NCBI GenBank assembly: GCA_023251095.1
Contig: JAHEZL010000004.1
Span: forward strand, 48,226-112,225
Source of the DNA: Flavobacteriales bacterium
Lineage (GTDB): Bacteria; Bacteroidota; Bacteroidia; Flavobacteriales_C; GCA-002722245
DNA length: 64,000 nucleotides
Direction: 5' to 3'
Shown here: positions 46,000 to 63,911 of the stretch, piece after piece
Position numbering within the stretch: position 1 is the first letter of the stretch
Layout of the letters: the number at the start of each line of letters is the position of its first letter
Translations under genes and position numbers: made by a program
The notes under the pieces: model-generated
What the model saw: the letters and a program-made list of their open reading frames with translations, nothing else
What the model was told of the DNA's origin: nothing
The model's database searches: none

Positions 46000-46029
46000 C
46001 TACCCAACCTTTCTTTTTCAGCATCCGTA
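46000..46029 (+). promoter_or_regulatory. ECF-sigma-like promoter motif CTACCCAACC-N15-CCGTA (copy 1)
   Basis: The motif ends 19 nt before the ATG of 46049. Shared with 52827..52857, 57753..57779 and, inverted, 47408..47437. Confidence 0.45.
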
Positions 46030-46048
46030 GTTTTTAGAAACATCAATT

Positions 46049-47260
46049 ATGAAGAATATAATTTTACGAAGTTTAGTATTTGTGTCAATGTTGTTGAATA
46101 GTGTTAATCTGAATGCGCAAGCCGCTTCGGGTCCGCTCGTTTATAGCGGAAAATCGAATATTATTATCAACGGTAAAGCATTCACCTCAGGTACAAGTGG
46201 GGTGGCTATCACCTTAACCAATTGCTCAAAGGTGGTGATTTCCAATTGTGAATTTATTCTTACTAAAGACATTATAGGAATTCAATTGAACAATTGTAGT
46301 AACGTAGAAATTACGGGTTGTTATTTTGAGAATTTTCGCTCGGGGGTATATGCTGTAAATTGTACAGGCGGCATTAATATTCATTGTAATTCATATAAAA
46401 ATATAGCGGGAATAAAACCACGCGGACAAATGGTGCAGTTCAATACCTGCAGCGGTGCGGGAAATAAAGTGAATTACAATACGCTGGATCATACTTTCGG
46501 ATCGGGCACTCCCGAAGATTTGATTAATATGTATGCGTCGTACGGAACTACTGCCGATCCTATTCAGATCATAGGAAACCAGTTGCGTGGTGGCGGACCG
46601 AGTACTTCGGGCGGAGGAATTATGGTGGGCGACAACGGCGGACATGATGTGCGCATAGAAGACAATATTCTGGTGGATGTTGGTCAGTATGGCATCGGTG
46701 TGCCTGCCGGATACAACATTACTGTGATCAATAATAAGGTGTATGGCGCAAAACAAACCTGGACCAACGTGGGGCTTTATGTTGGTTTACAAGGAGAGGT
46801 GGATGGTGGCTATGCCTGTACCGGAAGCAGTATTCAGGTAAAAGACAATCAGATTAAATTCACCAATAAAAGCAATGTGGTGAACGGCTGGTACAATTGC
46901 ACTTGTTGTTCGGGAGTGGTGCAAAGCGGAAATAATTTTAAAGCGAGTATTACTTCCTCTGTTTTGCCTGCCAATTTAAGTTTGAATACCACACAATGTG
47001 GAAGTGTTGCTACTGCTGTTGCAGAAAAAAAATCATCAGATGCTTTTGATGTGTACCCCAACCCGGCAGAGCATCTATTAGTAGTGACTAATCTTACGGG
47101 AAGTGAAAATGTTCAGATTTTCAATTCTTTGGGTCAGGAGGTGTTTACTGCGAAAAACAATCTTGAAAATTCGCTGATACAAATTGATGTCGATGGATTT
47201 CCTTCAGGAATTTATTTTATTCAAATCAATAATCAGGTGAAAAAATTTATAAAGCAATAA
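46049..47260 (+). CDS. right-handed parallel beta-helix repeat protein with T9SS type-A C-terminal sorting domain
   Basis: Repeated NCS/NCT…ITGC…F beta-helix rungs (VISNCEF, VEITGCYFENF, INIHCNSY). C-terminal VYPNPAEHLLVV…GIYFIQINNQ T9SS CTD. Confidence 0.75.
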   Translation: MKNIILRSLVFVSMLLNSVNLNAQAASGPLVYSGKSNIIINGKAFTSGTSGVAITLTNCSKVVISNCEFILTKDIIGIQLNNCSNVEITGCYFENFRSGVYAVNCTGGINIHCNSYKNIAGIKPRGQMVQFNTCSGAGNKVNYNTLDHTFGSGTPEDLINMYASYGTTADPIQIIGNQLRGGGPSTSGGGIMVGDNGGHDVRIEDNILVDVGQYGIGVPAGYNITVINNKVYGAKQTWTNVGLYVGLQGEVDGGYACTGSSIQVKDNQIKFTNKSNVVNGWYNCTCCSGVVQSGNNFKASITSSVLPANLSLNTTQCGSVATAVAEKKSSDAFDVYPNPAEHLLVVTNLTGSENVQIFNSLGQEVFTAKNNLENSLIQIDVDGFPSGIYFIQINNQVKKFIKQ

Positions 47261-47407
47261 GAGCAACGATAGATCCTGAGGGATAATCCACGGAAGATGA
47301 CTATTCTTAATTACCCCTCATATAGTTCATTATAAGTGTCCTAATGATTCTTCTAATTCCAAAGGGATCTATCGCTTTTCCACTTAAAAATCAGTTCTTT
47401 TTTTCCG

Positions 47408-47437
47408 GTACGGATCACAGGGTCATTAGGTTGGGTA
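47408..47437 (-). promoter_or_regulatory. ECF-sigma-like promoter motif CTACCCAACC-N15-CCGTA (copy 3, minus strand, no downstream ORF)
   Basis: Reverse complement of GGTACGG…GGTTGGGTAG. It points into the 47261..47407 spacer, where no ORF longer than 7 aa exists. Confidence 0.35.
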
Positions 47438-47579
47438 GCATGAAATAATAACGATTTTTCTGTTTTTATATCGATCTAAGTCGTATTTTTTCCTTCTTCA
47501 ATATCTTATGAAGGAAAAGGGGCTTTCATAGGCATAAGAAAATTAACTTGTAAATTCTTGTCTTTTAATCAACGTCTAC

Positions 47580-48143
47580 GTGATTACAAACGATTTAATA
47601 GATAAATGTGTTCGTCAGGATATCCGTGCTCAGCTTGAAATGCATGAGTGTTGTTTCCGTATGCTGATGCCTGTTTGCTATAAGTTTGTACGCAATGAAG
47701 AAATGGCGCGTGAGTTATACAATCAAGGATTTTTAAAGATTTTGGATGCCTTGCAATATTTCGATCAAAATAAAGATTTTACGCAATGGGCCAAAAAGAT
47801 CATGATGAATAAGCTGATCGACGATTATAGAAGTAAGAAGTCCTTGCAGAAACTGATCGATGACAATTTGCAGCCCGATTTTGCTTCAAATACCATTCGT
47901 TTAAAAGATGAAAACACATATCTGAACCAGGCTGAAGAGGAAAGAGTAAACTACTTGCTGGAAAAATTGCCTGAAACCACCCGTCGTGTTTTTAGGCTCT
48001 TTGCCCTAGAGGGTTATTCTCACCAGGAGATCAGCGATTTGATGAAGATGTCAACCGGAACTTCCAAATGGCATGTGTCGAATGCGCGAAATTTATTGAA
48101 GCGTTTTGTTACAAAAAAATTAAATGTAGTGAGTCATGAATAG
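47580..48143 (+). CDS. RNA polymerase ECF-type sigma-70 factor
   Basis: Region 2 (…FLKILDALQYFDQNKDFTQWAKKIMMNKLIDDYR) and region 4 HTH (FRLFALEGYSHQEISDLMKMSTGTSKWHVSNARNLLK). GTG start. Confidence 0.85.
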   Translation: MITNDLIDKCVRQDIRAQLEMHECCFRMLMPVCYKFVRNEEMARELYNQGFLKILDALQYFDQNKDFTQWAKKIMMNKLIDDYRSKKSLQKLIDDNLQPDFASNTIRLKDENTYLNQAEEERVNYLLEKLPETTRRVFRLFALEGYSHQEISDLMKMSTGTSKWHVSNARNLLKRFVTKKLNVVSHE

Positions 48144-49422
48144 TGGGAATAACGACATACCGTCTTTTGAATACAAACCTGAGTTCAGACAGGAGATGGA
48201 AAAGATTTTGGTTAAAAGGAAATCGAAAAAGCGTTTTCTGTTTTTTTTAACCTGGACTTTAGGCGGGCTTGTCCTTGCTGCGGGATCCTTCTATTTCATG
48301 CAGGAAGAGCAACAAATACCGGAAGAAAAAATACAGAAAGAGCAAAATGTTCAGGAGATCTTTACATCGGAATCTGTTGCTGATGAAAGTGCTAAAAAGC
48401 AAATATTGACTACCGTAAATTCCAATGGAAGTACTACACCTGCGGAACAGAAAATTAAAAAGACCTTGGCTCAGAAAAAAACTGTAAGCACTTCACCTTC
48501 AATAAATACCTTTCAGCAGCAAACAAAACAAGAAGCAACAACACCGCAGGAGATACCGATAAATGCTATTGTTTCTACCGAAGTTGTTCAAAACGATTCT
48601 TCTTTATTGGAACAGGATAGTTTGCTTTCAACTACCGAAAACAAAATTTCTTTTGAAGATTCGTTAATGAGTTTTGCGCATAACAACAGCGATACTAATT
48701 TAACTGATACACTGGCTAAAGTTCCCGAGGATTCTGTAAAAAATTCATCAGATCATCAATGGCTATTGTACGTTGGTGCAGGAGCGAACAACAGCATTGG
48801 AGAAGGAGAATACAGCAATGGAATCGCTCCTTCTTTCAAATTAGGGGTGCATTATCTCAAAGAGTTCACTAAGGAACATGCTGTGGGAATAGGCTTACAA
48901 AGCAAGTTGTATAGGGGTCTATACAACTGGGGAGGCTACGATACGGTGAAGACAAGTATTACCAATCCTAACAACTCCGGCTACGATAAAATGGAAGCAC
49001 GTGTGGTAACGCACAATCAAAATAAATATGCAATGGCTTTGTCGCTGCCTTTGTATTATCGCTATTCCACTCCTAAATTCAGTTTCAGCGTTGGCGCGAG
49101 CATTGATTATCTGGCGGCAAATTTGTACGAACAAACTGCAGATTCTTCCAAGTATGGCATCAATACTTTTGTTTTTTACACAGAAGTTTTAACGGAGAAA
49201 ACAAGTGCTGCAAAAGTAAAGAAACAGGATTTCAGAGGAATCAATCAACTCAATTTCGGTCCGTTTATAGAAGTGGATTATCACTTGTCTCCCAAAATTT
49301 CTATGGGACTTACGGGGCAGATGCTGGTTCAGGATATTACCAATAATGCTGTTGTAAACGTCAATAAAAACAGTCCGATTTATTCTTTAAATGTAAGTTT
49401 GAAATATCATTTTTGTAAATGA
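48136..49422 (+). CDS. membrane protein co-transcribed with ECF sigma (putative anti-sigma factor with beta-barrel-like C-terminal domain)
   Basis: Overlaps the sigma gene by 8 nt. Short cytoplasmic N-terminus, one TM (FLFFLTWTLGGLVLAAGSFYF), and a large extracytoplasmic domain ending in an aromatic-rich beta pattern. No zinc anti-sigma motif is recognised, so the call is low confidence. Confidence 0.45.
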   Translation: MNSGNNDIPSFEYKPEFRQEMEKILVKRKSKKRFLFFLTWTLGGLVLAAGSFYFMQEEQQIPEEKIQKEQNVQEIFTSESVADESAKKQILTTVNSNGSTTPAEQKIKKTLAQKKTVSTSPSINTFQQQTKQEATTPQEIPINAIVSTEVVQNDSSLLEQDSLLSTTENKISFEDSLMSFAHNNSDTNLTDTLAKVPEDSVKNSSDHQWLLYVGAGANNSIGEGEYSNGIAPSFKLGVHYLKEFTKEHAVGIGLQSKLYRGLYNWGGYDTVKTSITNPNNSGYDKMEARVVTHNQNKYAMALSLPLYYRYSTPKFSFSVGASIDYLAANLYEQTADSSKYGINTFVFYTEVLTEKTSAAKVKKQDFRGINQLNFGPFIEVDYHLSPKISMGLTGQMLVQDITNNAVVNVNKNSPIYSLNVSLKYHFCK

Positions 49423-52400
49423 TGTTTTGGTATAAATTGATATTGGAAAAAACACGTTTTCCTGCAAGATTACTTGTGTGGCTTTTTCTGCTTTTGTTTT
49501 TACCCGACACTTATGCCCAGCAGTCGAAACAAGGATCTGCAAATATTTCTACTGCAAAAATTGTAAACGAATATGCTTATCTCACCACCGATGCAAAAAA
49601 GGGAACAGCCTTACTTAAGCTGAACAATGCTCAGCTGAATTCCAATAGTCGTTTTGCTTCCAATTTATCACCCGGAGATTTATTGTTTGTTCTTCAGGTA
49701 CAGGGAGCGATAATATCTACAGCAAATGATGCTTCTTATGGGTCGGTATTGTCGTTCAACGGTGCGGGCTTGAATGAATTTGTGCAGGTGAGATCTGTGA
49801 GCGGAAATAACGTGACCATTGATTGCGCATTAAAAAACGATTATAGCGCTGCGGGAAAAACAATGGTGATTCGTGTGCCCCGCTATCAAACGCTTACCAT
49901 TACTAATACAGGTGTGTTGAGCGCTGATGCATGGAACGGAAACAAGGGAGGAATTGTGGTGCTGGAAGTTGCAGGAGATTTAAAAATCGACGGAAAAATT
50001 GATGTTAGTGCAAAGGGATTCAGAGGCGGCGGCTATGATAACGGAACTTATAAAATCACTGATTCAATTGATCACAATCTCTTCGTTACTCCAGATTCTA
50101 ACGCCAGTGCTGAGAAAGGAGAAAGTATTGCCGGATATCAAAGTGATTATGATTTTATGGGAGGAAGGTATGGAAGAGGAGCAGCGGCGAATGGCGGCGG
50201 TGGTGGTAATACGCATAATGCCGGCGGTGGTGGCGGAGCCAATGGCGGAGATTTGTTGTTGTGGACAGGCTTAGGAAATCCAAATCATAGTCATCCTCAT
50301 TGGGTGAGTGCCTGGAATCTGGAGGGAAGTGGTTTTGCTTTTCAAATTTCTTCAGGCGGAGGAAGAGGAGGTTATTCTTATTCAAAGGTTCAGGAGGATC
50401 CCCTGATTACTGCGCCCGGTTCAATTGATTGGCTGGGAGATTTAAGAAGAAATATTGGTGGTTTTGGTGGACATCCCTTGCAATATGATGCAGCGGGTTC
50501 TCTTGTGTTTTTTGGTGGTGGCGGTGGTGCAGGCGATGCCAATAATTACGCTGTTGATACCACCGGCGGGAATGGTGGAGGTATTGTTGTTATAGTGGTG
50601 AAAGGGAATATAAGCGGTAGCGGAATAATTATTGCCGACGGAGGAAAAGGTGGCGATACCAGTCCGGCCGGAACTTTGAACGACGGTACAGGCGGTGGTG
50701 GCGGTGGCGGCGCCATTATTTTGACTGCTTCAGGAACTATTTCATCACTGACTTTGCAAGCCAACGGAGGAGACGGAGGGAGTCAGCTCATTGGTACTTT
50801 ACTCACTAAGCAAAAGTACGAGGCAGAAGGAATGGGCGGTGGCGGCAGTGGCGGATACATTGCTACTACCAATAGCTTAGTCTCTGTTTCTGTGTCGGGA
50901 GGGAAAAACGGAATTACCTCTTCGCAGGCGATGCTCAATTTTATTCATAACGGTGCAACTAAGGGAGGATCGGGATCGGTAGTTGTTATAGGTACTTCCA
51001 ATTATCAGTCGGTAAAAGTGGAAGTAAAACACGATACGGTGTGTGCCGGACAAACGGCTACGCTTATCGCTAATCCGGTGGGTGGCACGCCTTCTTTGGT
51101 GGAGTGGTATAGCGCCCCCGCGGGAGGAGTGCCTATACATACCGGTGGAACTTATTCTTTTACAGCCAACAATGCGGTGTGTTATTATGTGCAATATTGT
51201 CCGAATATTACCAGAGATACAGTGTGCGCGAAAATAGACCTTCCACCTGTTTTCGATTTAGGTAAGGAAGTCTACGTTTGTGCCGGCTTATCAGTGGAAC
51301 TGGATGCGGGCAGCGGATATTCCTACACCTGGAATACGGGAGAACATACCCGGAAAATTGCTGTGAAAAATGCCGGTAAATATTGGGTGTCGGTGAATGC
51401 ATCAGCTTGCGCAGCTTCCGATTCAGTCAATGTATATCTGTCTCCAAATCCTTTCGATTTGGGAGGAAATATAAGTGTGTGCGAAGGAAATCTGGTGACT
51501 CTGGATGCAGGATACTGGAGTTCGTATTCGTGGAGCACCGGCGCAAATACAAAAACCATTGCTGTGCTAACAGCGGGAGTGTATAAAGTATCGGTTTCTT
51601 CGGTATTGTGTTCAGGTATTGATTCTGTGAAAGTAACTTTGCTGCCTCTTCCTTCTTTTCAGGTATCCAGCGAAACCATTTGTGAGGGAGAGACAACAGA
51701 GCTGGAAGTGAAAATCACTGATCCTTTGAACAATCCTTCCAACTGGATTGTACAGTGGCAGGGAGGAGGAACAGCATTAAAAAAAACGCTGAGCAGCGAA
51801 GGGAAAAATCTTGTGAAAGTAACCAACAAAACCACCTTATGCGCCGATACTTCTTCGGGATACATATTCATTGATCCTCCTTTTGAAATTGATCTCGGAC
51901 CCGATCGCAATATTTGTGAAGGAGATTCCGTGCTGTTGAAAGTTCCGGGAACCTATCCCAAAAATATATGGAACGACCTTTCTCAGGGAACATCATTGCT
52001 CGTGAAAAAAACGGGATCTTATCGGGTGGAAGTCAGCGATGCAGTGGGATGCACAGCCATTGATAATGTTCAGGTGAATGTATTGTCGTTTACAGGATTT
52101 ACTTTGGGCGATGATATTGTCGCCTGCACCGGACAACAGGTAAGCATCGGAACAGCCGTCGAGACCGATTATTATTTATGGTCGGATGGAGCAACTACTC
52201 CTGAAATTGTTGTAGATGCCAACGGAGATTATATTCTTACCGTCAGCAATGAAATTTCCTGTTCGGCAACAGACACCGTCAACGTTCACTTTTTGCCTTA
52301 TCCACAGGTATATCCTGCCAACGATACTACTTTATGTTTTCTGGATTCAAAAGGTGAAGTTACGTTGAGTGCCGAATCCAAACCGGGCTATCAGTATTTG

Positions 52401-52811
52401 TGGAGTACAGGTGATACCAGTGCTGCCATAAGCATAGATGAAGAAGGAATTTATTTGTTGGAAATTCAATTGCCCTCGGTAAGTTGTGTATACAATAAAG
52501 AGGTAAAAGTGAATGATTACTGCGACGCGAAAATATTTTTTCCAACGGCTTTCACACCCAATGGAGACGGAATAAATGATATTTTTTATACTCCCAATTT
52601 TGCTTTGAAAGGTTATCGTTTTTTGATTTTGGATCGCTGGGGAAAGGAACTTTTTATAACAGAAGATCCTTCGTTGGGCTGGGATGGCAGATATCAGGGA
52701 AGAATAGTTCAGGAAGATGTGTATGTGTGGAAAGCATATTTTGATATGGAGCAGGAAAACGGACAAATCAAAAAGCAATCCCGTGTGGGACGGGTTGCTT
52801 TATTGAAATAA
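49419..52811 (+). CDS. giant Gly-rich surface protein with Ig-like repeats and T9SS type-B (gliding-motility-associated) C-terminal domain
   Basis: Overlaps the upstream gene by 4 nt (ATGA). Poly-Gly tracts GGGGGNTHNAGGGGGANGG. C-terminus CDAKIFFPTAFTPNGDGINDIF…FLILDRWGKELF…GWDG…, same family as the 31 kb and 37 kb genes. Confidence 0.8.
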   Translation: MMFWYKLILEKTRFPARLLVWLFLLLFLPDTYAQQSKQGSANISTAKIVNEYAYLTTDAKKGTALLKLNNAQLNSNSRFASNLSPGDLLFVLQVQGAIISTANDASYGSVLSFNGAGLNEFVQVRSVSGNNVTIDCALKNDYSAAGKTMVIRVPRYQTLTITNTGVLSADAWNGNKGGIVVLEVAGDLKIDGKIDVSAKGFRGGGYDNGTYKITDSIDHNLFVTPDSNASAEKGESIAGYQSDYDFMGGRYGRGAAANGGGGGNTHNAGGGGGANGGDLLLWTGLGNPNHSHPHWVSAWNLEGSGFAFQISSGGGRGGYSYSKVQEDPLITAPGSIDWLGDLRRNIGGFGGHPLQYDAAGSLVFFGGGGGAGDANNYAVDTTGGNGGGIVVIVVKGNISGSGIIIADGGKGGDTSPAGTLNDGTGGGGGGGAIILTASGTISSLTLQANGGDGGSQLIGTLLTKQKYEAEGMGGGGSGGYIATTNSLVSVSVSGGKNGITSSQAMLNFIHNGATKGGSGSVVVIGTSNYQSVKVEVKHDTVCAGQTATLIANPVGGTPSLVEWYSAPAGGVPIHTGGTYSFTANNAVCYYVQYCPNITRDTVCAKIDLPPVFDLGKEVYVCAGLSVELDAGSGYSYTWNTGEHTRKIAVKNAGKYWVSVNASACAASDSVNVYLSPNPFDLGGNISVCEGNLVTLDAGYWSSYSWSTGANTKTIAVLTAGVYKVSVSSVLCSGIDSVKVTLLPLPSFQVSSETICEGETTELEVKITDPLNNPSNWIVQWQGGGTALKKTLSSEGKNLVKVTNKTTLCADTSSGYIFIDPPFEIDLGPDRNICEGDSVLLKVPGTYPKNIWNDLSQGTSLLVKKTGSYRVEVSDAVGCTAIDNVQVNVLSFTGFTLGDDIVACTGQQVSIGTAVETDYYLWSDGATTPEIVVDANGDYILTVSNEISCSATDTVNVHFLPYPQVYPANDTTLCFLDSKGEVTLSAESKPGYQYLWSTGDTSAAISIDEEGIYLLEIQLPSVSCVYNKEVKVNDYCDAKIFFPTAFTPNGDGINDIFYTPNFALKGYRFLILDRWGKELFITEDPSLGWDGRYQGRIVQEDVYVWKAYFDMEQENGQIKKQSRVGRVALLK

Positions 52812-52826
52812 AATAAAAAATTACTT

Positions 52827-52857
52827 CTACCCAACCTTTCCGCTTTCACAAACGGTA
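52827..52857 (+). promoter_or_regulatory. ECF-sigma-like promoter motif CTACCCAACC-N16-CGGTA (copy 2)
   Basis: CTACCCAACCTTTCCGCTTTCACAAACGGTA lies 47 nt upstream of the ATG of 52904. Confidence 0.45.
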
Positions 52858-52903
52858 TTCTTGTTTAAGGGGCTATAAATGGGTATAATTTAAAATTTCA
52901 ACT

Positions 52904-54814: not shown

Positions 54815-54818
54815 AATT

Positions 54819-57605
54819 ATGAGAAATAAAATTTTGTTTTTCCTGCTCGTGCTATGCTCTTATGTGAACGCTCAGGTTCCTGCAGCAACAGCCGATTTTT
54901 TTAAGCTGATTGATTTAACCCGGCCTGATATGAAAAACATTTCAGCTTTGGTAACTGCTGCAAAGTATGACGCTGCGCTGGAAGTATGGCGAGATACTGT
55001 GGTGAATCGTTTGCGAAGATTGAATCTCGGACAGTTCAACTGGCACTCTAATTGTCAGAATGGGTATTATATCAACTGGTCGAAAATGCTGGTGGAAAAT
55101 ATTACACCTGCAACTTATAACGCCGGCTCTACGAGTTATAATGATTATTTTGATCTCACCAATTCACCTTACAAAACAGTAAAAAATGTAAAATGGATTG
55201 CTTCACCACCAAGCGGAATGCAAGATGACGACGGTGAAATCGCCAGCTATATGATGTTTGTTCCTTTGCCTGCAACCTATCATAAAATGGGCGATACCAT
55301 TTATTTAAAAAAGTTTATGCAGGTGTCGAGTGATTTTGCAGTGCGACAAAAAACTTTGTTGAAAGCATTATCTGCTGCCGATCAAAAATTATATTCTCCC
55401 AATTGGAGCACCGGCGCTCAGGAAGTTTTATGGCAGGGCGACAGAGTAGCGAACATCGTAAAATGTTTGGGAGTGCTGGCGAAAAATCTTCCGGGTGAAA
55501 CAAAAATTTCTGCATGGGATGGAGTGATCAGCACGGTGAGAGGAAAGGTGACTACACAAAACACAAAATGTATTTCAGCTAAACAATTGTCAAATATTGC
55601 TGCGGCTTTGGTGGGTGATAATCCCGATTTATTATTGTCGGTTTACCGCTATGCAGGTAAAGTTCCCAACCAACGTTTCAACGGATTGTATTCTTTAATG
55701 ATGATGTGTTTAGCTTTTCCCGAGTTTAAATCGGTAGCGGTTGATGAAGTGGAAGTTGTTGCCGGACTCACCGATTTCATGAATACCATGTGCGCAAAAG
55801 ACGGTGGATTTTTAGAGCAATCTTTTAATTACAATCAAACCGATGCCGGTAAAATGAGTGATTTGGTGGATATGGCGGCGTCGGCAGGAAGATCAAGTAT
55901 GCCGGTGATTGCTTTGATTTCAAACGGAGTAGATGATTTTTATAGAATGTTGTGGGCACTTAAAACTCCTTTGATGGCACAGCCTTTAGTGGGCAACTGT
56001 GCACATAGCGGCGCAACAAATGTGTGGACGAGCACTACAGTTGCTGATACGTATAAAAAAACAATTACAGCTTCGTCGGATGCTTTATCCAAACAAATTG
56101 TAAATGCTTTCAATGGTAAAACTCCTGCGCCTAAATTCACTTCCATTTCATTTCCTTACAGCGGATATTATACGCAGCGACAAGGCTGGGAAATTGATGA
56201 TGCTTATTTATTTTTTATGGGCGGGCGTGCGGCACGCGGACATAAAATGGGCGATAACAACAGCATTCAAGTGGTGGCCTTCGGTAGAGAATTACTCGCT
56301 ACCGACGGGCCACCCGATTATTTCGGAGATCTCACCGGTGACCAGGGAACTTACATCAGTGAAAATTCTTCATTGAAAGCCAACACAATTATTGTGGATG
56401 GAAAATCACAAAACAAAAATTCTATTTTAACCAGTCAGGCTTCTGCACCAATTACTTCACGTAACTACAATTCGACTACGGAAGATTTTGTGGAAGGAAC
56501 TTTTGATAAAGGCTATTGCACGATTGGCGCAACGTCGGCTTCGGTGACTGATGTAACGCACAACCGACAAGTTATCTTTTTAAAAGAAGCAGGCATTTGG
56601 ATCATGACTGATTTTATGAATCACACAGGAACCAACACGCATACTTATGCGCAAGTGTGGAATTTTGAACCTTATCTTACCGCTTCAAAAATTTATGGCT
56701 TCACTGAAGCTCAGGTTTCTTTTGATAAAACAAACAAAAGAATTGTAACTGTTGATCCATCCGGACCGAATATCCGATTGCAGAATTTCGGGAAAATCTC
56801 CACTCTCGATTATGTGAAATATTACAATCAGGCTTCTCCTGCAATGGGTTGGTATGCGCCGAGTATCAGTACTATTACTCCTGCGGTGGATATTCATGCA
56901 ACATGGACGGGCACAGGGAATCAGGCTTTGGGAACCATCATCATGCCTGCAAAAGGATTGACGAAAGATGTGGTGTACAAAGATTTATCACCCGATGTAA
57001 AAACTACTGCGCTTTCTCTCACTTTACCGAATGGAAATAAACTGATGTATTCATCGGGCTTCACTGCAAAAGCAACAACGCAATTCAATTTCACTTTCAA
57101 CAGCAAAGGATATTTGTTGCAGGAAAATGCAAATGGCGATGTGACAGGAATGGTGATTGGCGGCGATAAAGCGGCGTTGCTGTGGGATGGTAATTCCATT
57201 GATCACGGATTTTCTGATTACGGAATTTCTTATGACGTAGCAATGCAAACCATTACTTTAACTCCGTTTGAAGTACCCAATACTTTTGTGTGGGACAGTA
57301 AACCTATGGCGTCTATTGTTTCTCCGGCAAAGGCGGATGTGGTATTTGTGATTAGTACAACTGCTGTAAATTCAGTGATTACAGAAGGAGTGGTGGTGTA
57401 TCCGAATCCATCCAACGGAGCTTTCTTTTTAAATTCTGCGCAAGATGTAAAGCAAATTAAAATCTATAATCTTCAGGGAAAAGAAATGGAGAATATTCAA
57501 AATGTGGATTTTGGTTTTGGAGAAAATTTAGCGGAGGGAATGTATATTCTTCAGGTGGAATATATGAATGGAAATATCTTTTATAATAAGATTGAAAAGT
57601 TTTAG
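54819..57605 (+). CDS. T9SS cargo protein, possible polysaccharide lyase (heparinase II/III-like alpha/alpha toroid + beta-sandwich); function uncertain
   Basis: Signal peptide and an N-terminal helical region resembling heparinase II/III N-termini, but no catalytic motif confirmed. C-terminal VVYPNPSNGAFFLNSAQDVKQIKIYNLQGKE…GMYILQVEYMNGNIFYNKIEKF T9SS CTD. Starts 4 nt after the upstream gene, so probably operonic. Confidence 0.5.
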   Translation: MRNKILFFLLVLCSYVNAQVPAATADFFKLIDLTRPDMKNISALVTAAKYDAALEVWRDTVVNRLRRLNLGQFNWHSNCQNGYYINWSKMLVENITPATYNAGSTSYNDYFDLTNSPYKTVKNVKWIASPPSGMQDDDGEIASYMMFVPLPATYHKMGDTIYLKKFMQVSSDFAVRQKTLLKALSAADQKLYSPNWSTGAQEVLWQGDRVANIVKCLGVLAKNLPGETKISAWDGVISTVRGKVTTQNTKCISAKQLSNIAAALVGDNPDLLLSVYRYAGKVPNQRFNGLYSLMMMCLAFPEFKSVAVDEVEVVAGLTDFMNTMCAKDGGFLEQSFNYNQTDAGKMSDLVDMAASAGRSSMPVIALISNGVDDFYRMLWALKTPLMAQPLVGNCAHSGATNVWTSTTVADTYKKTITASSDALSKQIVNAFNGKTPAPKFTSISFPYSGYYTQRQGWEIDDAYLFFMGGRAARGHKMGDNNSIQVVAFGRELLATDGPPDYFGDLTGDQGTYISENSSLKANTIIVDGKSQNKNSILTSQASAPITSRNYNSTTEDFVEGTFDKGYCTIGATSASVTDVTHNRQVIFLKEAGIWIMTDFMNHTGTNTHTYAQVWNFEPYLTASKIYGFTEAQVSFDKTNKRIVTVDPSGPNIRLQNFGKISTLDYVKYYNQASPAMGWYAPSISTITPAVDIHATWTGTGNQALGTIIMPAKGLTKDVVYKDLSPDVKTTALSLTLPNGNKLMYSSGFTAKATTQFNFTFNSKGYLLQENANGDVTGMVIGGDKAALLWDGNSIDHGFSDYGISYDVAMQTITLTPFEVPNTFVWDSKPMASIVSPAKADVVFVISTTAVNSVITEGVVVYPNPSNGAFFLNSAQDVKQIKIYNLQGKEMENIQNVDFGFGENLAEGMYILQVEYMNGNIFYNKIEKF

Positions 57606-57613
57606 TGGGGTTT

Positions 57614-57690
57614 TTTAGGTAATGGTTTTTGTAGAGACGCAAAATTTTGCGTCTCGTGATATGGTTTGTCGGAGACGGAAAATCTTCCGT
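57614..57690 (+). terminator. twin-hairpin terminator region (GAGACGcaaaattttGCGTCTC and GAGACGgaaaatcttcCGTCTC nested in an outer TGTAGAGACG…CGTCTCTACA palindrome)
   Basis: Two near-identical 8-bp-stem hairpins inside a larger palindrome, directly after the stop of 54819..57605. Confidence 0.55.
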
Positions 57691-57752
57691 CTCTACAAGA
57701 AACATACACTCTCTCTGCTTCAAAGGGGGTAATTCCGATAAGTACTTGTTTG

Positions 57753-57779
57753 CCGCAACCCTAAAATTTTCAAAACGTA
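57753..57779 (+). promoter_or_regulatory. ECF-sigma-like promoter motif variant CGCAACC-N15-CGTA (copy 4)
   Basis: GCCGCAACCCTAAAATTTTCAAAACGTA lies 52 nt upstream of the ATG of 57832, with the same spacing as copies 1 and 3. Confidence 0.35.
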
Positions 57780-57831
57780 AACGTTTCCCATATTTGTTTT
57801 AAATTGCAGCTGGGTTTATCCGAGAGAAACA

Positions 57832-60324
57832 ATGGGAATGAAGATTTGTTGGCGTATATTTTTCTGTTTTTTATTGAGTACAATAAATATTATGGCTGCT
57901 ACCAAAACGTGGGATGGCGGAGGGGCTGACGACAACTGGCAAACTGCAGCCAACTGGGATTTGGATGTGGCGCCTGTTGCAGGAGATGCTCTGGTTTTTG
58001 CGGGTTCAACCCGAACAACGCCCAACAATGATTTTGCAGCCAACACAAGTTTTGCTTCCATTACTTTTTCCAATGGAGCCTCTTCCTTTACTTTATCTGG
58101 CAATGATTTAACACTCAGTGGAGGGGCTACGGCCATAACAGCCAGTAATGCAAGCAACGCAATGGTAATTAGCATAAACATTACTTTCAGTACCGCAGCT
58201 CCAACTATCACCAGTACTTCAGGAGGAACACTTACACTATCGGGAACAGTTGCTAACGGCGGATTTTTGCTAACAATAGCCGGAGATGGTGTTATTACCA
58301 TTAGCGGAGTACTTAGTGGAACAGGAGCATTGTATATCAATACTATCCTTGATAACGTTACCATTCTCTCTGGAACAAATACATTTACGGGGAATGTTAC
58401 GATAAATGTTGGAGGAATAAGAATCAGCAGTGCAAGCGGATTGGGAGCGGGTGCAAAAACGATCACGATGACTAATGGGGCGTCATCCAGTTTGAGGCTG
58501 GATGCATCAGGAGGCGACATCACTCTCCCCAACACCCTTTCTTTCAATATCAGCGCCGCATCGGGAACTTATGGGGGAATTATTAATGAAGCTGGTAATA
58601 GCATTATTCAAAGTGATATGTCGGTACCTACTGGTGGAGGAGGTGTTCGGCTGATGTCATCTGTAGGTACAATATCTGCCAGCGGTACATATACTCCTAC
58701 TGCTGCTGGAAGAGTACTAGCTTTATATGGTGCTTCAAATGGCACTTTTAGCGGTACATGGTTGGATGCAGGTTATACTACTACGGAATTAAATAAATTT
58801 GATGCGGGAACGTGGACTTTAACCAATACTGGAAATAGTTATGCAGGAAGAACATACATACAAGTGGGTACATTGAAACTAGGTGCAGCGGGTGTTATTC
58901 CTGATTTGAGTACAGTTACAGGTGCCGGAACCTTTGATATGAATGGTTACAGCGAAACAGTGGGTTCAATGGCTAGAACAGGGATCACTGATATTGTTTC
59001 TGCCGGCGGTACTTCAACACTAACTTGTGGTGGTGACAATACGAGTACCACCAATTCGGGAGTGATAAAAAATACTACCGGAACTTTGTCTCTAACGAAA
59101 GTAGGAAGTGGAACGCTTACTTTATCAGGTACCAATACTTACGCCGGTACCACTACAATTTCCGCTGGTACAATTGCGGTGGGAGCGGGTGGCACTACTG
59201 GAGCCATAGCAGGAAACATTACCAACAACTCCGCACTGCAATTTAACAGAACAAATTCGTATACTTATAGTGGTACTATCAGCGGCTCAGGAACGGTGCT
59301 GCAAGCTGGCTCAGGAACCACTACTTTTTCGGGCTCCAATTCTTACACCGGTACCACTACTATTTCAGCAGGTACTTTGCAGCTGGGTGCTGCGGGTGTT
59401 ATTTCTAATTCAAGTAATGTGGTGCTGAATGGTGGTTATCTGTCTACGGGCTCAGGTGCAGGATACAGCGAAACTGTGGGGACATTAACACTCACCGCTA
59501 ATAGCAGAATTGCACTTGGTACAGGTAGCCATTCTTTAAATTTTGCAGCAAGTGACGGAACTGCGTGGACAGGTGGTACTTTGCTTCGAATCACAGGCTG
59601 GCAAGGTGGATTTGATTGCAGCTCGGGTACTTCCGGTAAAGTTTATACAGGTTCCAGTAACGAGCTTGCTGCCGGAAAATTAGCACAGATATTTTTCTCT
59701 CATCCTATTTCCGGTTTGCCTTTTACGGCCTGTCAGCTCAATACTGGAGAAATTGTGCCTACTTCAACACTTCCTGTGGAACTGGTGTCGTTTAATGGCG
59801 AACTGAACAACAGTGTTGTTGATTTGTACTGGCTCACTGCTTCAGAAATCAATAGTGATTATTTTGAGATATTGCGATCTTCCGATGCCATTCATTTTGA
59901 GTCGATAGGCAAAGTGGAAGCTGCCGGCAACAGCAATGATTTTATATCATATTCTTTTCACGATGCTGAACCACTTTCAGGTTACAGCTATTATAAATTA
60001 GTTGAAATTGATATTGACGGCGCTCAGCAAAATTCAAAAATAATTGGAATTAATCGTGCTTCTGATGAAGCTACTTTATCCATTTTCCCCAATCCGAATG
60101 AAGGCAGTATAATCGTTAGCTTTAATGCCCTCTTTGCAGGGATATTCAATTTAGTAATATACAATATGGAAGGACAGCAAGTGTATCATGCAATGGTTGC
60201 TGCAAACGAAGGGAGCAATAAATTCGATTTGAGCTTGGCTCAGTTGACAGCAGGAAATTACATTGTTGAATTAGTGGATTTCAATCAGCAAAAACAACAA
60301 ACAAAAATCACGAAGAAAGAATAA
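57832..60324 (+). CDS. autotransporter-associated beta-strand-repeat (passenger-like) protein with T9SS type-A C-terminal sorting domain
   Basis: Repeated ~20-aa units (TLTLSGTNTYAGTTTISAGTL; TTFSGSNSYTGTTTISAGTLQLGAAG) typical of autotransporter beta-strand repeats. C-terminal …LSIFPNPNEGSIIVSF…GNYIVELVDF CTD. Confidence 0.7.
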   Translation: MGMKICWRIFFCFLLSTINIMAATKTWDGGGADDNWQTAANWDLDVAPVAGDALVFAGSTRTTPNNDFAANTSFASITFSNGASSFTLSGNDLTLSGGATAITASNASNAMVISINITFSTAAPTITSTSGGTLTLSGTVANGGFLLTIAGDGVITISGVLSGTGALYINTILDNVTILSGTNTFTGNVTINVGGIRISSASGLGAGAKTITMTNGASSSLRLDASGGDITLPNTLSFNISAASGTYGGIINEAGNSIIQSDMSVPTGGGGVRLMSSVGTISASGTYTPTAAGRVLALYGASNGTFSGTWLDAGYTTTELNKFDAGTWTLTNTGNSYAGRTYIQVGTLKLGAAGVIPDLSTVTGAGTFDMNGYSETVGSMARTGITDIVSAGGTSTLTCGGDNTSTTNSGVIKNTTGTLSLTKVGSGTLTLSGTNTYAGTTTISAGTIAVGAGGTTGAIAGNITNNSALQFNRTNSYTYSGTISGSGTVLQAGSGTTTFSGSNSYTGTTTISAGTLQLGAAGVISNSSNVVLNGGYLSTGSGAGYSETVGTLTLTANSRIALGTGSHSLNFAASDGTAWTGGTLLRITGWQGGFDCSSGTSGKVYTGSSNELAAGKLAQIFFSHPISGLPFTACQLNTGEIVPTSTLPVELVSFNGELNNSVVDLYWLTASEINSDYFEILRSSDAIHFESIGKVEAAGNSNDFISYSFHDAEPLSGYSYYKLVEIDIDGAQQNSKIIGINRASDEATLSIFPNPNEGSIIVSFNALFAGIFNLVIYNMEGQQVYHAMVAANEGSNKFDLSLAQLTAGNYIVELVDFNQQKQQTKITKKE

Positions 60325-60436
60325 TTTTTATTTTTTTTTATCCTTCCTGTTTTTAATAATGTAAAAATAACACTATATTGGTGTGCTGCTAGCTTGTAAA
60401 GATCAAGGGGAATTTATTTACATTATACCTTATCTA

Positions 60437-61765
60437 ATGAAAAAGTTAGTTTTAATCTTACCTCTTTTTTTTATCAGTATCACCGGAGATGCGCAAGGTC
60501 TCAAAAGTTTTTTGCCTTCAGGTAAATACATTGGTACTGCCATCAACGATACTTATTTCGATAATCCATCGGCCAACGGAGCGGATTATGAAAACATTGT
60601 TAAAGCCGATTTTAACGTTGTTGTTGCTGAAAATGCTTTTAAGATGAGTACTATTTTAGCCACTAAACCTTCCGATCCTTTGAACTTAAAACTGAGCGAT
60701 TTGAATTTAAGCAAAGTGGATAAATTAATCACTTTCACTCAAAACAATAACATCAGATTAAGAGGTCATAATTTTGTATGGTATTCCTATCCGCCTTATT
60801 GGTTAAACTCCGAAGCGGCAAAATGGAGTGAGGTTCAGTTGTATTCTTTTACCAAACAATACATTACTTTATTGGCCGGCTATTGCAAAGGAAAAGTGAA
60901 AGAATGGGATGTGGTGAATGAAGCAATTGATGACGATGCTACCACTCCTGCTTACCGCAGTATTACCTGGTATTCAAAAGCAAGCTCTGCTCAAACGTTT
61001 ATCGATAGTTGTTTTTATTACGCTCATGCAGCCGATCCTGATGCCGAACTTTTTTACAACGATTACAGCATCGAAATAAGTTATTTTAAAAAACAGGATT
61101 TTATGCTCGCCATGGTTCAGGACATGGTGAATCGCGGTGTTCCAATTAATGGTGTTGGTTTGCAATGTCATTTTGAAAGTGGTGCGAATACAAATGATTG
61201 GGTATACAATGAACTAAGAATATTGATGGATAAACTGGCGGTGATGGGATTGAAATGCAATATCACCGAATTGGATTTGCGTATTTGCGGCAGCGGATCA
61301 TCTTCTGTTGAACAAGCCGATGAGTATAAAAAAATAACAAAAATATTTCTCGATAAAAGCAATTGCACTTCAATGTTGCTATGGGGATTTACCGATAAAT
61401 CATCTTGGATTCCATCGTTTTTTTCAAATTGTGATGATGGTTTAATTTACGATGATGCTTACCAGCCTAAACCTGCTTATACTGCAATTAAAGATGAGTT
61501 GGAAAGTAGTAATGCGGTTGAATTGCCTGATAATGCTGCTGAAGCAAACGCAGGTGTTTATCCAAATCCTTCTTCACAATCTTTCTTTTTGAGAAGTTCT
61601 GCTGATGTAAAACAAATCACAATTTTCAATCTGCAGGGAAAAGAAATTTCTGTTGTTGAAAATGTTAAGGAAGGCTTCGGAGAAAATTTAGCGGAAGGAT
61701 TTTATATGGTAAAAATTCAATATTTTAACGGAGATATTTCTTTCCAAAAAATTGAAAAAATGTAA
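60437..61765 (+). CDS. glycoside hydrolase family 10 endo-1,4-beta-xylanase with T9SS type-A C-terminal sorting domain
   Basis: GH10 signatures: GHNFVWYSYPPYWL, acid/base region WDVVNEAIDDD and nucleophile region NITELDL. The ATG at 60437 gives the signal peptide MKKLVLILPLFFISITGDAQG. C-terminal CTD GVYPNPSSQSFFL…. Confidence 0.85.
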   Translation: MKKLVLILPLFFISITGDAQGLKSFLPSGKYIGTAINDTYFDNPSANGADYENIVKADFNVVVAENAFKMSTILATKPSDPLNLKLSDLNLSKVDKLITFTQNNNIRLRGHNFVWYSYPPYWLNSEAAKWSEVQLYSFTKQYITLLAGYCKGKVKEWDVVNEAIDDDATTPAYRSITWYSKASSAQTFIDSCFYYAHAADPDAELFYNDYSIEISYFKKQDFMLAMVQDMVNRGVPINGVGLQCHFESGANTNDWVYNELRILMDKLAVMGLKCNITELDLRICGSGSSSVEQADEYKKITKIFLDKSNCTSMLLWGFTDKSSWIPSFFSNCDDGLIYDDAYQPKPAYTAIKDELESSNAVELPDNAAEANAGVYPNPSSQSFFLRSSADVKQITIFNLQGKEISVVENVKEGFGENLAEGFYMVKIQYFNGDISFQKIEKM

Positions 61766-62888
61766 ATCGATGCTGAAAGCTCTTGCTTGTTTTATTGTTG
61801 CAATATGGTGTGTTGCATCGCTGAATGCACAAACGGATGTTTTTGGAATTTCAAAACTCTATCCTTCCAAACAAGGGTTTGCCGAATGGACTTCCGCACA
61901 CTGGAACAATGGCGTGGATCGCACTATTACTTATGCTTCCGATGCTTATGATCCTACCAATTGGACGGAAGATCACAGCGGTAGCAGTTACGGTTTTCAC
62001 ATTGACGGCAAAGGTGTAATGACGATGTACGGTACTCCGCGTTTTCATGTGAATCCGAAAATAAGTTCCAAAGTTTCCGCTCAGGTTTTTACCAATATTG
62101 AATTCACCGCTTACTATAAAAAAACAGGATCGCAAGGTGCAAGTTATGGCGGAATGATAGTGGGCATGCGCGGTGCAGCCAATGGTCACGGTTCTTCCAA
62201 CGGAAATAATTGCGATGCGCAATGTTACATGGGGCGTTTTCGCAACGATGGAAAATGGGATTTTGAAAAAGAATTGAAACATCCTGCCACCACTTATTAT
62301 TCAGGATCGGGCTACATGAAACAGGATCCTTTGTGGGGTGGAAAAAAGTTGCCCGAAGACAAATGGATAGGCATGAAATATATTTTGATCAACGTGAATA
62401 ATACGGTGAAAATGACTTTGTATATTGATACGGTATCCAACGGAAATCCCGTGAATGGCGGTGTTTGGCAGCTGGTGGGAGAGGTGATTGATAATGGTAG
62501 TAATTTTCAGGGAGCTGATATTTCGGGCTGTTCTTATTCCGATAAGTATATGCCGATTACAGCAGGTGGAAATGTTTTTTGGAGAACCGATAACGACACG
62601 GCTCAATACAAAATGGTTTCTATCCGCGAGATAGATCCCGTTGCGAATGAGCTGATAGAAGTGACAGGAAATAAAGAGAAATTTTCATTGCGCTTTTCAT
62701 CTACAGAAATAAATATACTGAGTGAAGCGCAAATTTTTAAAGTTGAAATTATTGATGCTGCGGGTCGAATGGTATTGAGTGATTCCTCAAACAATAATAT
62801 TTTTGATATTTCAAATTTAGCAACAGGTGTTTATTTGCTGCGCGCTACAACAAGCGATGGAGTTTTGGTAAAAAGATTTGTGCATTGA
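61752..62888 (+). CDS. T9SS cargo protein with concanavalin-A-like beta-sandwich body (function unknown)
   Basis: Signal peptide, a Gly/Asn-rich beta region, and the C-terminal …FKVEIIDAAGRMVL…GVYLLRATTSDGVLVKRFVH CTD. Overlaps the GH10 gene by 14 nt; the alternative start is at 61770. Confidence 0.55.
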   Translation: MKKCKSMLKALACFIVAIWCVASLNAQTDVFGISKLYPSKQGFAEWTSAHWNNGVDRTITYASDAYDPTNWTEDHSGSSYGFHIDGKGVMTMYGTPRFHVNPKISSKVSAQVFTNIEFTAYYKKTGSQGASYGGMIVGMRGAANGHGSSNGNNCDAQCYMGRFRNDGKWDFEKELKHPATTYYSGSGYMKQDPLWGGKKLPEDKWIGMKYILINVNNTVKMTLYIDTVSNGNPVNGGVWQLVGEVIDNGSNFQGADISGCSYSDKYMPITAGGNVFWRTDNDTAQYKMVSIREIDPVANELIEVTGNKEKFSLRFSSTEINILSEAQIFKVEIIDAAGRMVLSDSSNNNIFDISNLATGVYLLRATTSDGVLVKRFVH

Positions 62889-63911
62889 TTAGTTCAATAC
62901 AATTTTTTTATTGAACGAGCCTTCCGCAGTATTAATATTTACAATATAAATCCCCGCCGGTAATTCCCCGATAAAGACACTATTGTTTACCCTTCCCGAA
63001 AAAACTTTTTTTCCTGAAAGATCAACGATCGTAATTTGATATACATCACTATTGTTGAGGTATAAAGTTTTTTCATTCATAAATAAATCAAATTGCACAG
63101 CGCCATGTTCCTTGCTGCTATTGGGTCCGGCACAAGTTCCTGCGGGAACGCTTCCTGTAAAACCTGTTGCTCCTGAAGTGGTGCAGGATAAAATTAATTT
63201 TCCGTCCTGGGTTCTGATGTTGTTGGGATCGTAATCCACCAGGTTGCCATCAAAGGTCCAGTTTGCCTTTGCCCATCGCGAAGAGTTGTATGTTGTAAAA
63301 TCATCTTTCCATGAAAAAGTAAAGTCGGTGCCATTGTCGCCGGCGCCTTTGGTGTAAGAAGAGTAGGAAAGCCAATCCACAAATTGATGTTTGGGTAAAT
63401 CGCCGGCGGTAAAAGCTCCCACCCATGGCACCGAATTGGAAATCCATGTATTAAAACGATACGACATTGCACTGCTGCAAAGTGTTACTTGTGCGCCTGT
63501 GGTTTTTCTGAGTTCAACGCCATCTAAATACCAGGCAATGTAATCGGGTGTCCACTCCAAAGTATACACATGAAAGTCATCGGCCAGAGATGTAGCGTTG
63601 GTATGTACTTGCTCACTTTTTGTAGCGCCGCCGGTGCCGGTAATAATATTGGATTGAAAACTCAGGGCATTGTTTTTTCCGAAAATTTCAATGTCGATTT
63701 CCTCCCATGCAGCGCCTTGTTGTTCGGAACCATTTTTATACAAAAAGAAAGTAGAAAGGAGTCCGCTTGCTTTTGATGCCTGCATGCACATTTCAAATTT
63801 TCCATATAGTACAGATGAAGTAGAGTAGAGTTCACCTCCTTTGTAAGCTTTGTTTTGCGCTTGTAACTGTAGGGACAAAGCAATAGCGGCGAGAATAAAT
63901 ATTTTTTTCAT
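62889..63911 (-). CDS. glycoside hydrolase family 16 (beta-glucanase/laminarinase-like) with T9SS type-A C-terminal sorting domain
   Basis: GH16 catalytic motif WEEIDIEIFG (ExDxxE), signal peptide MKKIFILAAIALSLQLQAQ, and the C-terminal …YQITIVDLSGKKVF…GIYIVNINTAEGSFNKKIVLN CTD. Confidence 0.8.
   Translation of the reverse strand: MKKIFILAAIALSLQLQAQNKAYKGGELYSTSSVLYGKFEMCMQASKASGLLSTFFLYKNGSEQQGAAWEEIDIEIFGKNNALSFQSNIITGTGGATKSEQVHTNATSLADDFHVYTLEWTPDYIAWYLDGVELRKTTGAQVTLCSSAMSYRFNTWISNSVPWVGAFTAGDLPKHQFVDWLSYSSYTKGAGDNGTDFTFSWKDDFTTYNSSRWAKANWTFDGNLVDYDPNNIRTQDGKLILSCTTSGATGFTGSVPAGTCAGPNSSKEHGAVQFDLFMNEKTLYLNNSDVYQITIVDLSGKKVFSGRVNNSVFIGELPAGIYIVNINTAEGSFNKKIVLN

Follow-up and report, generated by a model that had tools for sequence, protein, structure and literature searches.

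What kind of locus is formed by the ten open reading frames (ORFs) found between positions 46049 and 63911 of a 64,000-nucleotide stretch of Flavobacteriales DNA (contig JAHEZL010000004.1; the whole 64-kb stretch is referred to below as 'the window')? Eight of these ORFs encode predicted type IX secretion system (T9SS) cargo; an earlier interpretation of the same sequence (the 'original prediction') had described the entire 18 kb as a single secreted polysaccharide-degradation locus, encoding eight glycan-active proteins and lacking the SusC/SusD machinery of a polysaccharide utilization locus (PUL). The analysis described here points instead, with moderate probability, to a composite island: a cassette built around an extracytoplasmic function (ECF) sigma factor, together with its putative local regulon (part 1, from position 46003 to approximately 60324), would lie beside hemicellulase genes that fall outside that regulon (part 2, positions 60383-63911). 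All ten ORFs, nine of which lie on the plus strand, were recovered in place, as follows (CTD, C-terminal sorting domain; GH, glycoside hydrolase; ConA, concanavalin A):

46049-47260 (+): 403-aa protein with a Beta_helix/NosD match (Pfam) and a type A CTD (PF18962, TIGR04183)
47580-48143 (+): ECF sigma factor, 187 aa (Sigma70_r2, Sigma70_r4_2, Sigma70_ECF, TIGR02937)
48136-49422 (+): 428-aa membrane protein, putative anti-sigma factor, with no Pfam or NCBIfam family
49419-52811 (+): 1130-aa surface protein with Ig_7, a type B CTD (PF13585 and TIGR04131) and an AgmC_N-like N-terminus (NF047640, below cut-off)
52904-54814 (+): 636-aa beta-helix protein (PF12708) with a type A CTD
54819-57605 (+): 928-aa lyase-like protein (Hepar_II_III_N and Hepar_II_III_C) with a type A CTD
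57832-60324 (+): 830-aa autotransporter-repeat (PATR) protein (three PF12951 matches, TIGR02601) with a TIGR04183 type A CTD
60383-61765 (+): GH10 protein, 460 aa (PF00331, E = 4.9e-81), with a type A CTD
61752-62888 (+): 378-aa ConA-like protein, in which the type A CTD is the sole Pfam domain
62889-63911 (-): GH16 protein, 340 aa (E = 5e-26), with a type A CTD

The recognition of a T9SS cargo cluster proved sound. Both PF18962 and TIGR04183 match a type A CTD above cut-off in seven ORFs (29.6-58.8 bits against a cut-off of 27 for the former; 35-60 bits against a cut-off of 23 for the latter), and the type B CTD of the 1130-aa protein is matched by TIGR04131 (47.6 bits, cut-off 35) and by PF13585 (39.9 bits, cut-off 27). 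Direct reading of the N-termini, for a hydrophobic core followed by an A/Q-type site, places a Sec-type signal peptide on all eight cargo proteins, mostly with cleavage between A and Q. A hidden Markov model built from the seven type A CTDs gave seven strong matches, all inside the 18 kb, and a single weak match elsewhere in the window (26713-29145); the clustering of type A CTD genes in this region exceeds chance. The CTDs of the 928-aa protein (57400-57605) and of the GH10 protein (61560-61765) share 62% protein identity and 66% DNA identity, against 22-40% identity for other pairs in the cluster, a likeness that suggests a recent exchange or duplication of a sorting domain within the cluster.

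The statement that PUL machinery is missing likewise stood. A Pfam scan of ORFs of at least 300 aa across the window detected no SusC, SusD, TonB-dependent receptor or hybrid two-component domains; the one ORF of that size outside the scan (17668-18594, 308 aa) is too short to encode any of these proteins. The adjacent SusC-like transporter and SusD-like lipoprotein by which a PUL is recognised do not occur among the scanned ORFs, and the PorP/SprF family has no match in the cluster or in the other scanned ORFs of the window.

The apparent organising element of the region is the sigma gene, which the original prediction had noted and treated as incidental. Its product consists of regions 2 and 4 only (TIGR02937, 84.6 bits, cut-off 42.9). 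The reading frames of the sigma and 428-aa genes overlap by 8 nt, and those of the 428-aa and 1130-aa genes by 4 nt; judged from sequence, the three genes are a translationally coupled operon that is conserved in relatives. A genome search with the 928-aa protein returned two relatives (87% and 80% identity), and further loci were obtained by exact-protein look-ups and one metagenome search, giving a comparison set of four related contigs in which the gene order is as follows (percentages are identities to the window proteins; MAG, metagenome-assembled genome):

L008 (Flavobacteriales MAG), first half: beta-helix gene; ECF sigma (87%); 438-aa protein (54%); type B protein of 1118 aa (75%)
L008, second half: PATR gene; two 636-like genes; 403-like beta-helix gene; Hep-like gene; then unrelated genes
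L013 and L010 (lake metagenomes): 403-like gene; ECF sigma (84%); 428-like gene; 1130-like gene (74%); GH5-CBM6 gene; Pel9A-like beta-helix gene; 378-aa orthologue (81-84%)
L002/L009 (Lac Pavin MAG): only the 636/928 pair kept together; a second 636-like gene elsewhere on the contig

What remains constant in this comparison is the sigma/428-aa/1130-aa operon, usually with a beta-helix gene in front of it, and what varies is the surrounding cargo. The sigma factor is 84-87% identical in L008 and L013, and the 1130-aa protein is 74-75% identical in L008, L010 and L013. In L009 (8175-9914), three genes in tandem, each for a protein of 182-186 aa bearing the phage tail Collar domain (PF07484), come after a motif-bearing 636-like gene (the motif is described below).

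The 428-aa protein is likely to be an anti-sigma factor, to judge by its topology and by the location of its gene, which overlaps that of the sigma factor. Alignment of its family displays a conserved 32-aa N-terminal peptide (FEYKPEYR...) and one transmembrane helix; after these come a linker that varies (150-250 aa) and a conserved C-terminal domain, rich in beta structure, of approximately 220 aa that ends in ...SLKYHF. A search with this last domain retrieved 7 representative clusters among 1.84 billion proteins, all of identical architecture. PF13568 (OMP_b-brl_2) is matched by five of nine family members, with a best E value of 3.9e-8, and the window protein itself has no such match; by sequence, the family gave no significant match in the PDB. 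An identity as a PorP/SprF protein was considered and rejected, the domain being too small and the family unmatched.

NF047640 represents the N-terminal domain of AgmC, an adventurous-gliding protein of Myxococcus, and residues 29-277 of the 1130-aa protein (49419-50250) match it at 1.8e-51 (175 bits, below the cut-off of 275). This region is followed by one that contains 26% glycine (residues 280-520), in keeping with the 'Gly-rich giant' of the original prediction, and then by Ig-like repeats; the protein has no significant match in the PDB by sequence. For a type B CTD protein, the usual anchor is a cognate PorP/SprF-like barrel that is encoded nearby (PMC9143113). Here the neighbour of the type B gene is, in place of such a barrel, the 428-aa gene with its OMP_b-brl_2-type domain, and since no PorP/SprF gene was detected, that domain may, speculatively, fill the anchoring role. 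Two further type B giants with POM152-type Ig-like repeats lie upstream on the plus strand (31139-36691, 1850 aa; 36829-41514, 1561 aa), again with no adjoining PorP/SprF-like gene; over their C-terminal thirds they share 27-31% identity with the matching region of the orthologues of the 1130-aa protein in L008, L010 and L013.

The cassette is tied to part of the surrounding cargo by a promoter-like motif, first sighted as CTACCCAACCTTTC, a sequence found upstream of the 403-aa gene and again upstream of the 636-aa gene. The full element reads CCCAACC-N16-CG(G)TA, and so contains AAC and CGT boxes. Boxes of these two kinds are typical of ECF promoters. In Flavobacterium psychrophilum, ECF promoters are marked by a CGT -10 box (PMC9723704). 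The copies found in the window are these:

46003..46029 (+): CCCAACC-N16-CGTA, 46 nt before the 403-aa gene, whose L013 orthologue has the same motif
47409..47435 (-): copy between the beta-helix and sigma genes, pointing away from the latter
52830..52857 (+): CCCAACC-N16-CGGTA, 74 nt before the 636-aa gene, and also found before its orthologues in L002/L009 and L003/L008
57754..57779 (+): degenerate CGCAACC-N15-CGTA, 78 nt before the PATR gene, whose L008 orthologue has a full-consensus copy

Three strict copies in the window compare with a mean of 0.06 in 200 dinucleotide-preserving shuffles. Across the window and the four related contigs there are 14 instances; a spacer of 16 nt is found in 13 of them, and the degenerate PATR copy has 15. 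The boxes are constant and the spacer between them varies. Every plus-strand copy (10 of 10) lies 46-109 nt before the start codon of a cargo gene; in relatives, the genes so preceded are PATR, 636-like, Hep-like, 403-like and Pel9A-like. At control loci that are unrelated to the cassette, no copy was found in front of a gene, and two matches to a looser pattern in L014 both lie away from the upstream region of its lyase-like gene. The set of genes marked by the motif approximates the set that synteny ties to the cassette, and from sequence we infer both that the motif is a promoter and that it is read by this sigma factor.

Several related searches were made. A metagenome scan with the exact motif TACCCAACCTTT-N11-13-AACGGTAT returned 0 matches, the pattern being too strict and the lineage rare. 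A sigma-70 promoter and terminator scan returned 48 sites against 47.7 expected and is uninformative, and Bacteroidota promoters differ from the consensus that was used; the intergenic gaps that precede the cargo genes contain no Bacteroidota TAnnTTTG box, and a search of Rfam with positions 45000-64000 gave no match. The minus-strand copy of the ECF-type motif is kept at the same place in three genomes (in L008 at approximately 1772-1798 and in L013 at approximately 7953-7979), and transcription from it would be antisense to the beta-helix gene at its 3' end; a small ORF or small RNA downstream of it was considered and rejected, nothing there being conserved. Upstream of the sigma gene, the block TTTTTCTGTTTTTATATCGATCTAAGTCGTATTTTTT (approximately 47455-47492, plus strand) is nearly identical in L008, and may be the promoter or operator of the sigma operon itself.

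The second part of the region holds the GH10, ConA-like and GH16 genes. Both glycoside hydrolase assignments are well founded, in domain scores, catalytic motifs and matches to solved structures. The GH10 protein (PF00331, 272.8 bits; best solved structure XynZ, 1xyz, 222 bits) keeps both catalytic glutamates, the acid/base in WDVVNE at residue 175 and the nucleophile in TELD at residue 295, and by homology it is a solidly predicted endo-beta-1,4-xylanase; its true start is probably at 60437, where the signal peptide begins. The GH16 protein is collinear over residues 21-256 with the 1,3-1,4-beta-glucanase of Fibrobacter succinogenes (1mve and 1zm1, 250 bits), whereas its alignment to the non-permuted Bacillus enzymes is restricted to residues 61-213. 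The Fibrobacter-type collinearity, taken with a catalytic EIDIE motif (E-x-D-x-E) at residue 71, identifies it as a lichenase-type enzyme that is naturally circularly permuted, and as a predicted beta-1,3-1,4-glucanase the call is equally solid. It shares with the Fibrobacter enzyme both the EIDIE motif and the circular permutation relative to Bacillus lichenases, and is distinguished by its T9SS type A CTD and its Bacteroidota host; a permuted, Fibrobacter-type lichenase fused to a T9SS CTD is thus found in a Bacteroidota genome.

Between these genes lies that of the 378-aa protein (called with 372 aa in public data), for which a ConA-like fold had been proposed correctly: the AlphaFold model is a ConA-like jelly roll (pLDDT 89.6). 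No function can be assigned to it. Its highly conserved family (64 columns are invariant across 55 sequences) is widespread, with members for example in Cytophaga, Sporocytophaga and Chitinispirillaceae; a sequence search of the PDB gave no significant match, and the neighbourhoods of distant homologues (in Cytophaga aurantiaca, Sporocytophaga and others) contain no consistent partner gene.

These observations bear directly on the claim that the 18 kb as a whole form a single co-regulated locus, of non-PUL type, for degrading plant-type polysaccharides (xylan, beta-glucan, pectin), which we consider unlikely. A row of eight T9SS cargo genes, with nine of ten genes on one strand, invites that reading; the GH10 and GH16 genes are genuine, and the 378-aa family trails the sigma cassette in L010 and L013, beside GH5 and PL9-like genes. 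However, GH10 and GH16 are absent from the neighbourhoods of L008, L013/L010 and L002/L009, and no copy of the ECF-type motif precedes the GH10, 378-aa or GH16 gene, so that the motif marks a subset of the cargo only. The GH16 gene lies on the opposite strand and converges on the 378-aa gene with zero gap, a strong hairpin intervenes after the 928-aa gene, and the 636-aa beta-helix protein bears no GH28 or pectate lyase signature. As a description of the entire region, 'one polysaccharide-degradation locus' is not supported.

The 636-aa and 928-aa genes of part 1, the lyase-like pair, are separated by a 4-nt gap. Directly 3' of the 928-aa stop codon lies the hairpin (57627-57700, plus strand; -40.8 kcal/mol, z = -5.5), in which two near-identical GAGACG-N10-CGTCTC palindromes, the sole such pair in the window, are nested in a larger inverted repeat; from its position and fold it is likely to be a terminator or mRNA-end structure of the 636/928 unit. 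In three genomes (window 52858-52900; L008 9950-10000; L009 17185-17225), the 636-like genes share a conserved 5'-leader block (AAGGG.CT..AAAGGG.ATAATTTAAA) downstream of the motif.

The 636-aa protein had been described as pectate-lyase/GH28-like, of which the beta-helix fold stands and the family does not. The model is a right-handed beta-helix (pLDDT 93) whose top structures in Foldseek are the Klebsiella K1 capsule lyase, phage depolymerases and AlgE4; PF12708 covers only the N-terminal cap, with residues 76-157 matching PF12708 and AlgE caps. The sequence motifs that mark GH28 are NTD, G/QDD, G/SHG and RIK. None of these four is present, full-length similarity to polysaccharide lyase (PL) families PL1, PL3 and PL9 was not found, and capsule lyases and alginate epimerases come closest in structure; identity as a GH28 enzyme or pectate lyase was rejected on these grounds. 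Homologues number more than 795, at approximately 50% identity, in Bacteroidota, Fibrobacteria, Verrucomicrobia and Kiritimatiellales, and many of them are fused to CBM6, CBM35 or F5/8-C modules. The modelled fold makes the protein a probable polysaccharide depolymerase of an uncharacterised family.

The 928-aa protein combines an alpha/alpha toroid N-domain with a beta-sheet C-domain (PF16889, 22.3 bits; PF07940, 36.1 bits). Its family profile matches the PL12 heparinase III structure 4mmh at 9e-13, aligned in three segments, and N284, Y338 and H475, which are invariant in the family, align to Asn240, Tyr294 and His424 of 4MMH. In heparinase III the first of these is the neutraliser and the other two are the catalytic residues (PMC12088678). 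The similarity is confined to the profile level: the single sequence matches 4mmi at E = 0.09, and NF045573 (HepC) at 23.9 bits against a cut-off of 700. Compared with heparinase III (4mmh, 5jmd, 4fnv) and with the other lyases that pair an (alpha/alpha)n toroid with a beta-sheet domain (PL15, PL17, PL21, PL35, PL39), the protein shares the two-domain architecture and the aligned Asn, Tyr and His; it is set apart from heparinase III by some 250 additional residues, by its T9SS CTD and by the small size of its family (19 proteins among 8000 candidates scored). It is a credible candidate lyase for a uronate-containing polymer, and membership of PL12 itself is not demonstrable.

The two remaining type A proteins of part 1 are the 403-aa and 830-aa proteins. 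Orthologues of the 403-aa gene precede the sigma gene in L013 (70% identity) and in L008, and only the CTD of the protein was matched by sequence in the PDB. The 830-aa protein, with the three PATR repeats that had been noted as autotransporter repeats, appears adhesin-like from its sequence and is 47% identical to the PATR protein of L008. Domain and sequence searches gave no evidence of glycan activity for either. Of the eight proteins that the original prediction had called glycan-active, the description is supported by homology for GH10 and GH16 only and, at the level of superfamily or fold, for the 928-aa and 636-aa proteins, and by nothing found here for the 403-aa, 830-aa, 378-aa and 1130-aa proteins.

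An alternative is that cell-surface adhesion, gliding or matrix remodelling, and not nutrition, is the purpose of the cassette and its regulon; adhesins, or enzymes acting on the cell's own exopolysaccharide, would then be under ECF control of the envelope-stress type. The 1130-aa protein, which joins an AgmC_N-like domain to the type B CTD of a class that includes the gliding adhesin SprB (PMC9143113), speaks for such a role, as do the two additional type B giants upstream (31139 and 36829), the PATR repeats, which are typical of adhesins, and the presence of AlgE-type epimerases among the structural neighbours of the 636-aa protein. Against this, the homologues of the latter protein are often fused to CBM6, CBM35 and CBM32-type modules, as would suit enzymes acting on external polymers, the 928-aa protein keeps its full lyase catalytic set, and GH5 and PL9-like carbohydrate-active enzymes (CAZymes) are encoded after the cassette in other genomes; we regard the proposal as distinctly doubtful. 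Least probable of all is that no functional unit exists, abundant T9SS cargo genes having gathered by chance or local recombination around a motif left behind by duplication: CTD genes do continue beyond ppk and ppx past the end of the window, two CTDs look to have been exchanged locally and gene order is shuffled between relatives, but all seven strong type A CTD matches of the 64 kb fall within 18 kb, the motif is kept at fixed spacing before non-homologous genes with diverged flanks in several genomes, and the sigma/428-aa/1130-aa operon persists with overlapping frames.

Under the composite arrangement of cassette, regulon and neighbouring hemicellulase genes, the 428-aa protein would hold the sigma factor through its short conserved cytoplasmic peptide, its linker and beta-barrel-type domain reaching to the outer membrane, and a signal in the envelope would free the sigma factor. 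Once free, the latter would read CCCAACC-N16-CG(G)TA before the 403-aa gene, the 636/928 bicistron and, to a weaker degree, the PATR gene. Export of the products would proceed by Sec and then by the T9SS, with type A cargo either released or lipid-anchored at the cell surface, where the lyase-like pair might attack an acidic polysaccharide, most likely one that contains uronic acid (a capsule, an exopolysaccharide or an algal polymer); the substrate class is one that we infer. In part 2, the GH10, ConA-like and permuted GH16 proteins are likewise predicted T9SS cargo, encoded by genes without the ECF motif, and GH10 and GH16 would be hemicellulases beside the cassette that are expressed separately from it.

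A number of observations weigh against this account. Most ECF sigma factors autoregulate, and no plus-strand motif precedes the sigma gene in 47261-47579, so that an autoregulatory copy is lacking; nor does the minus-strand copy have an obvious target, with no ORF, Rfam family or conserved sequence downstream of it. The motif could alternatively be an operator, or be read by a different ECF sigma factor. In the Lac Pavin MAG, motif-bearing genes occur without an adjoining sigma gene on the contig examined, and a Hep-like gene whose product is a 66%-identical relative of the 928-aa protein carries no motif. Orthologues of the 378-aa gene come after the cassette in two other genomes (L010 and L013), which makes the boundary of the regulon a soft one. 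Pfam and NCBIfam family scans of the 428-aa protein recovered no recognisable anti-sigma or FecR domain, so that its anti-sigma role is deduced from context, and an inner-membrane helix and an outer-membrane barrel within one polypeptide are topologically unusual. Finally, it may be that neither the 403-aa nor the PATR protein acts on glycans, and the substrate of the enzymes of the cluster cannot be assigned. If the link to the sigma factor fails, an ordinary cluster of T9SS cargo genes remains.

A more ambitious extension, which we put forward as a long shot, is that the three-gene cassette is a T9SS-based trans-envelope sensor: the 1130-aa protein at the cell surface would be docked on the barrel-type domain of the 428-aa protein, and its contact with a polymer or a target cell would be passed on along the long linker and transmembrane helix of the 428-aa protein, freeing the sigma factor, which would induce the T9SS-secreted depolymerases. 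If that were true, the system would be a SusC-independent counterpart of the sigma/anti-sigma signalling of PULs, in which a single polypeptide bridges both membranes, and the 428-aa barrel domain would occupy the role that PorP/SprF plays for other type B cargo.

Set beside systems that have been described, the region contains both familiar and unfamiliar elements. In Bacteroides PULs, ECF sigma/anti-sigma pairs of the FecI/FecR type signal via an N-terminal extension of the SusC-like transporter, and are a standard means of controlling glycan genes. The present cassette is similar in placing an ECF sigma gene and an adjoining gene for a single-pass membrane protein beside putative target glycan genes, and differs in the absence of a SusC-like transducer (among the scanned window ORFs) and of a FecR or anti-sigma domain, in the OMP_b-brl_2-type domain at the end of the membrane protein, and in a type B CTD protein as the product of the third gene of the operon. 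The delivery of CAZymes by the T9SS outside PULs, to which the original prediction had appealed, is a documented strategy (Cytophaga hutchinsonii cellulases, Flavobacterium johnsoniae ChiA and the clusters of 'Ca. Paraporphyromonas polyenzymogenes'; PMC5831590). The genes described here resemble those in the combination of signal peptide and TIGR04183 CTD, in their operon-like runs and in the absence of SusC/SusD; here, by contrast, part of the run stands behind a conserved ECF-type promoter-like motif and beside a dedicated sigma cassette, and encodes lyase-like and beta-helix proteins of uncharacterised families, not cellulases. As in the SprB-SprF and PG1035-PorP pairs (PMC9143113), a type B CTD gene adjoins that of an outer-membrane beta-barrel-type protein; the barrel-type domain here is, however, an OMP_b-brl_2 domain of approximately 220 aa with no TIGR03519/PorP_SprF match, not a 14-stranded, FadL-like PorP, and it is fused to an N-terminal transmembrane segment and encoded beside a sigma gene. 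A literature search found no account of an ECF sigma factor combined with a transmembrane protein that ends in an outer-membrane barrel-type domain, with a type B protein resembling AgmC and with a promoter recognisable in front of T9SS cargo genes. To judge from that search and from the sequence, the sigma cassette and its apparent regulon look undescribed, and T9SS-secreted CAZymes outside PULs are already known.

The surroundings of the cluster contribute a few further observations. A gene for a T9SS plug protein (25338-26630, minus strand; PF17116, 5.7e-41) with a C-terminal AMPK1_CBM-like module is a sequence-level hint of a T9SS in the host. A 148-aa ORF (45600-46046, minus strand), for a small secreted protein with a weak CarboxypepD_reg match, lies between the ArgRS gene and the cluster; a signal peptide begins at its Met30 (45959), which is probably the true start, and with that start it does not overlap the first copy of the motif (46003). 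To the right of the window, past the GH16 gene (L001, 1-9000), there are three small ORFs, ppk and ppx, followed by a GH2 gene split into parts of 168 aa and 735 aa with a type A CTD, and then by another gene for a CTD protein; T9SS cargo genes therefore continue past these housekeeping genes.

What the region means for this group of bacteria follows from the contrast between the well-mapped regulation of PULs and that of T9SS-secreted CAZymes encoded outside PULs, which in Bacteroidota is largely unknown. The 636-aa beta-helix, 928-aa lyase-like and 378-aa ConA-like families are uncharacterised, conserved and secreted, and are candidates for new enzyme activities, and the 428-aa protein represents a rare architecture that may link two membranes. 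The conserved sigma cassette and its motif offer a handle for predicting regulons in uncultured freshwater Flavobacteriales.

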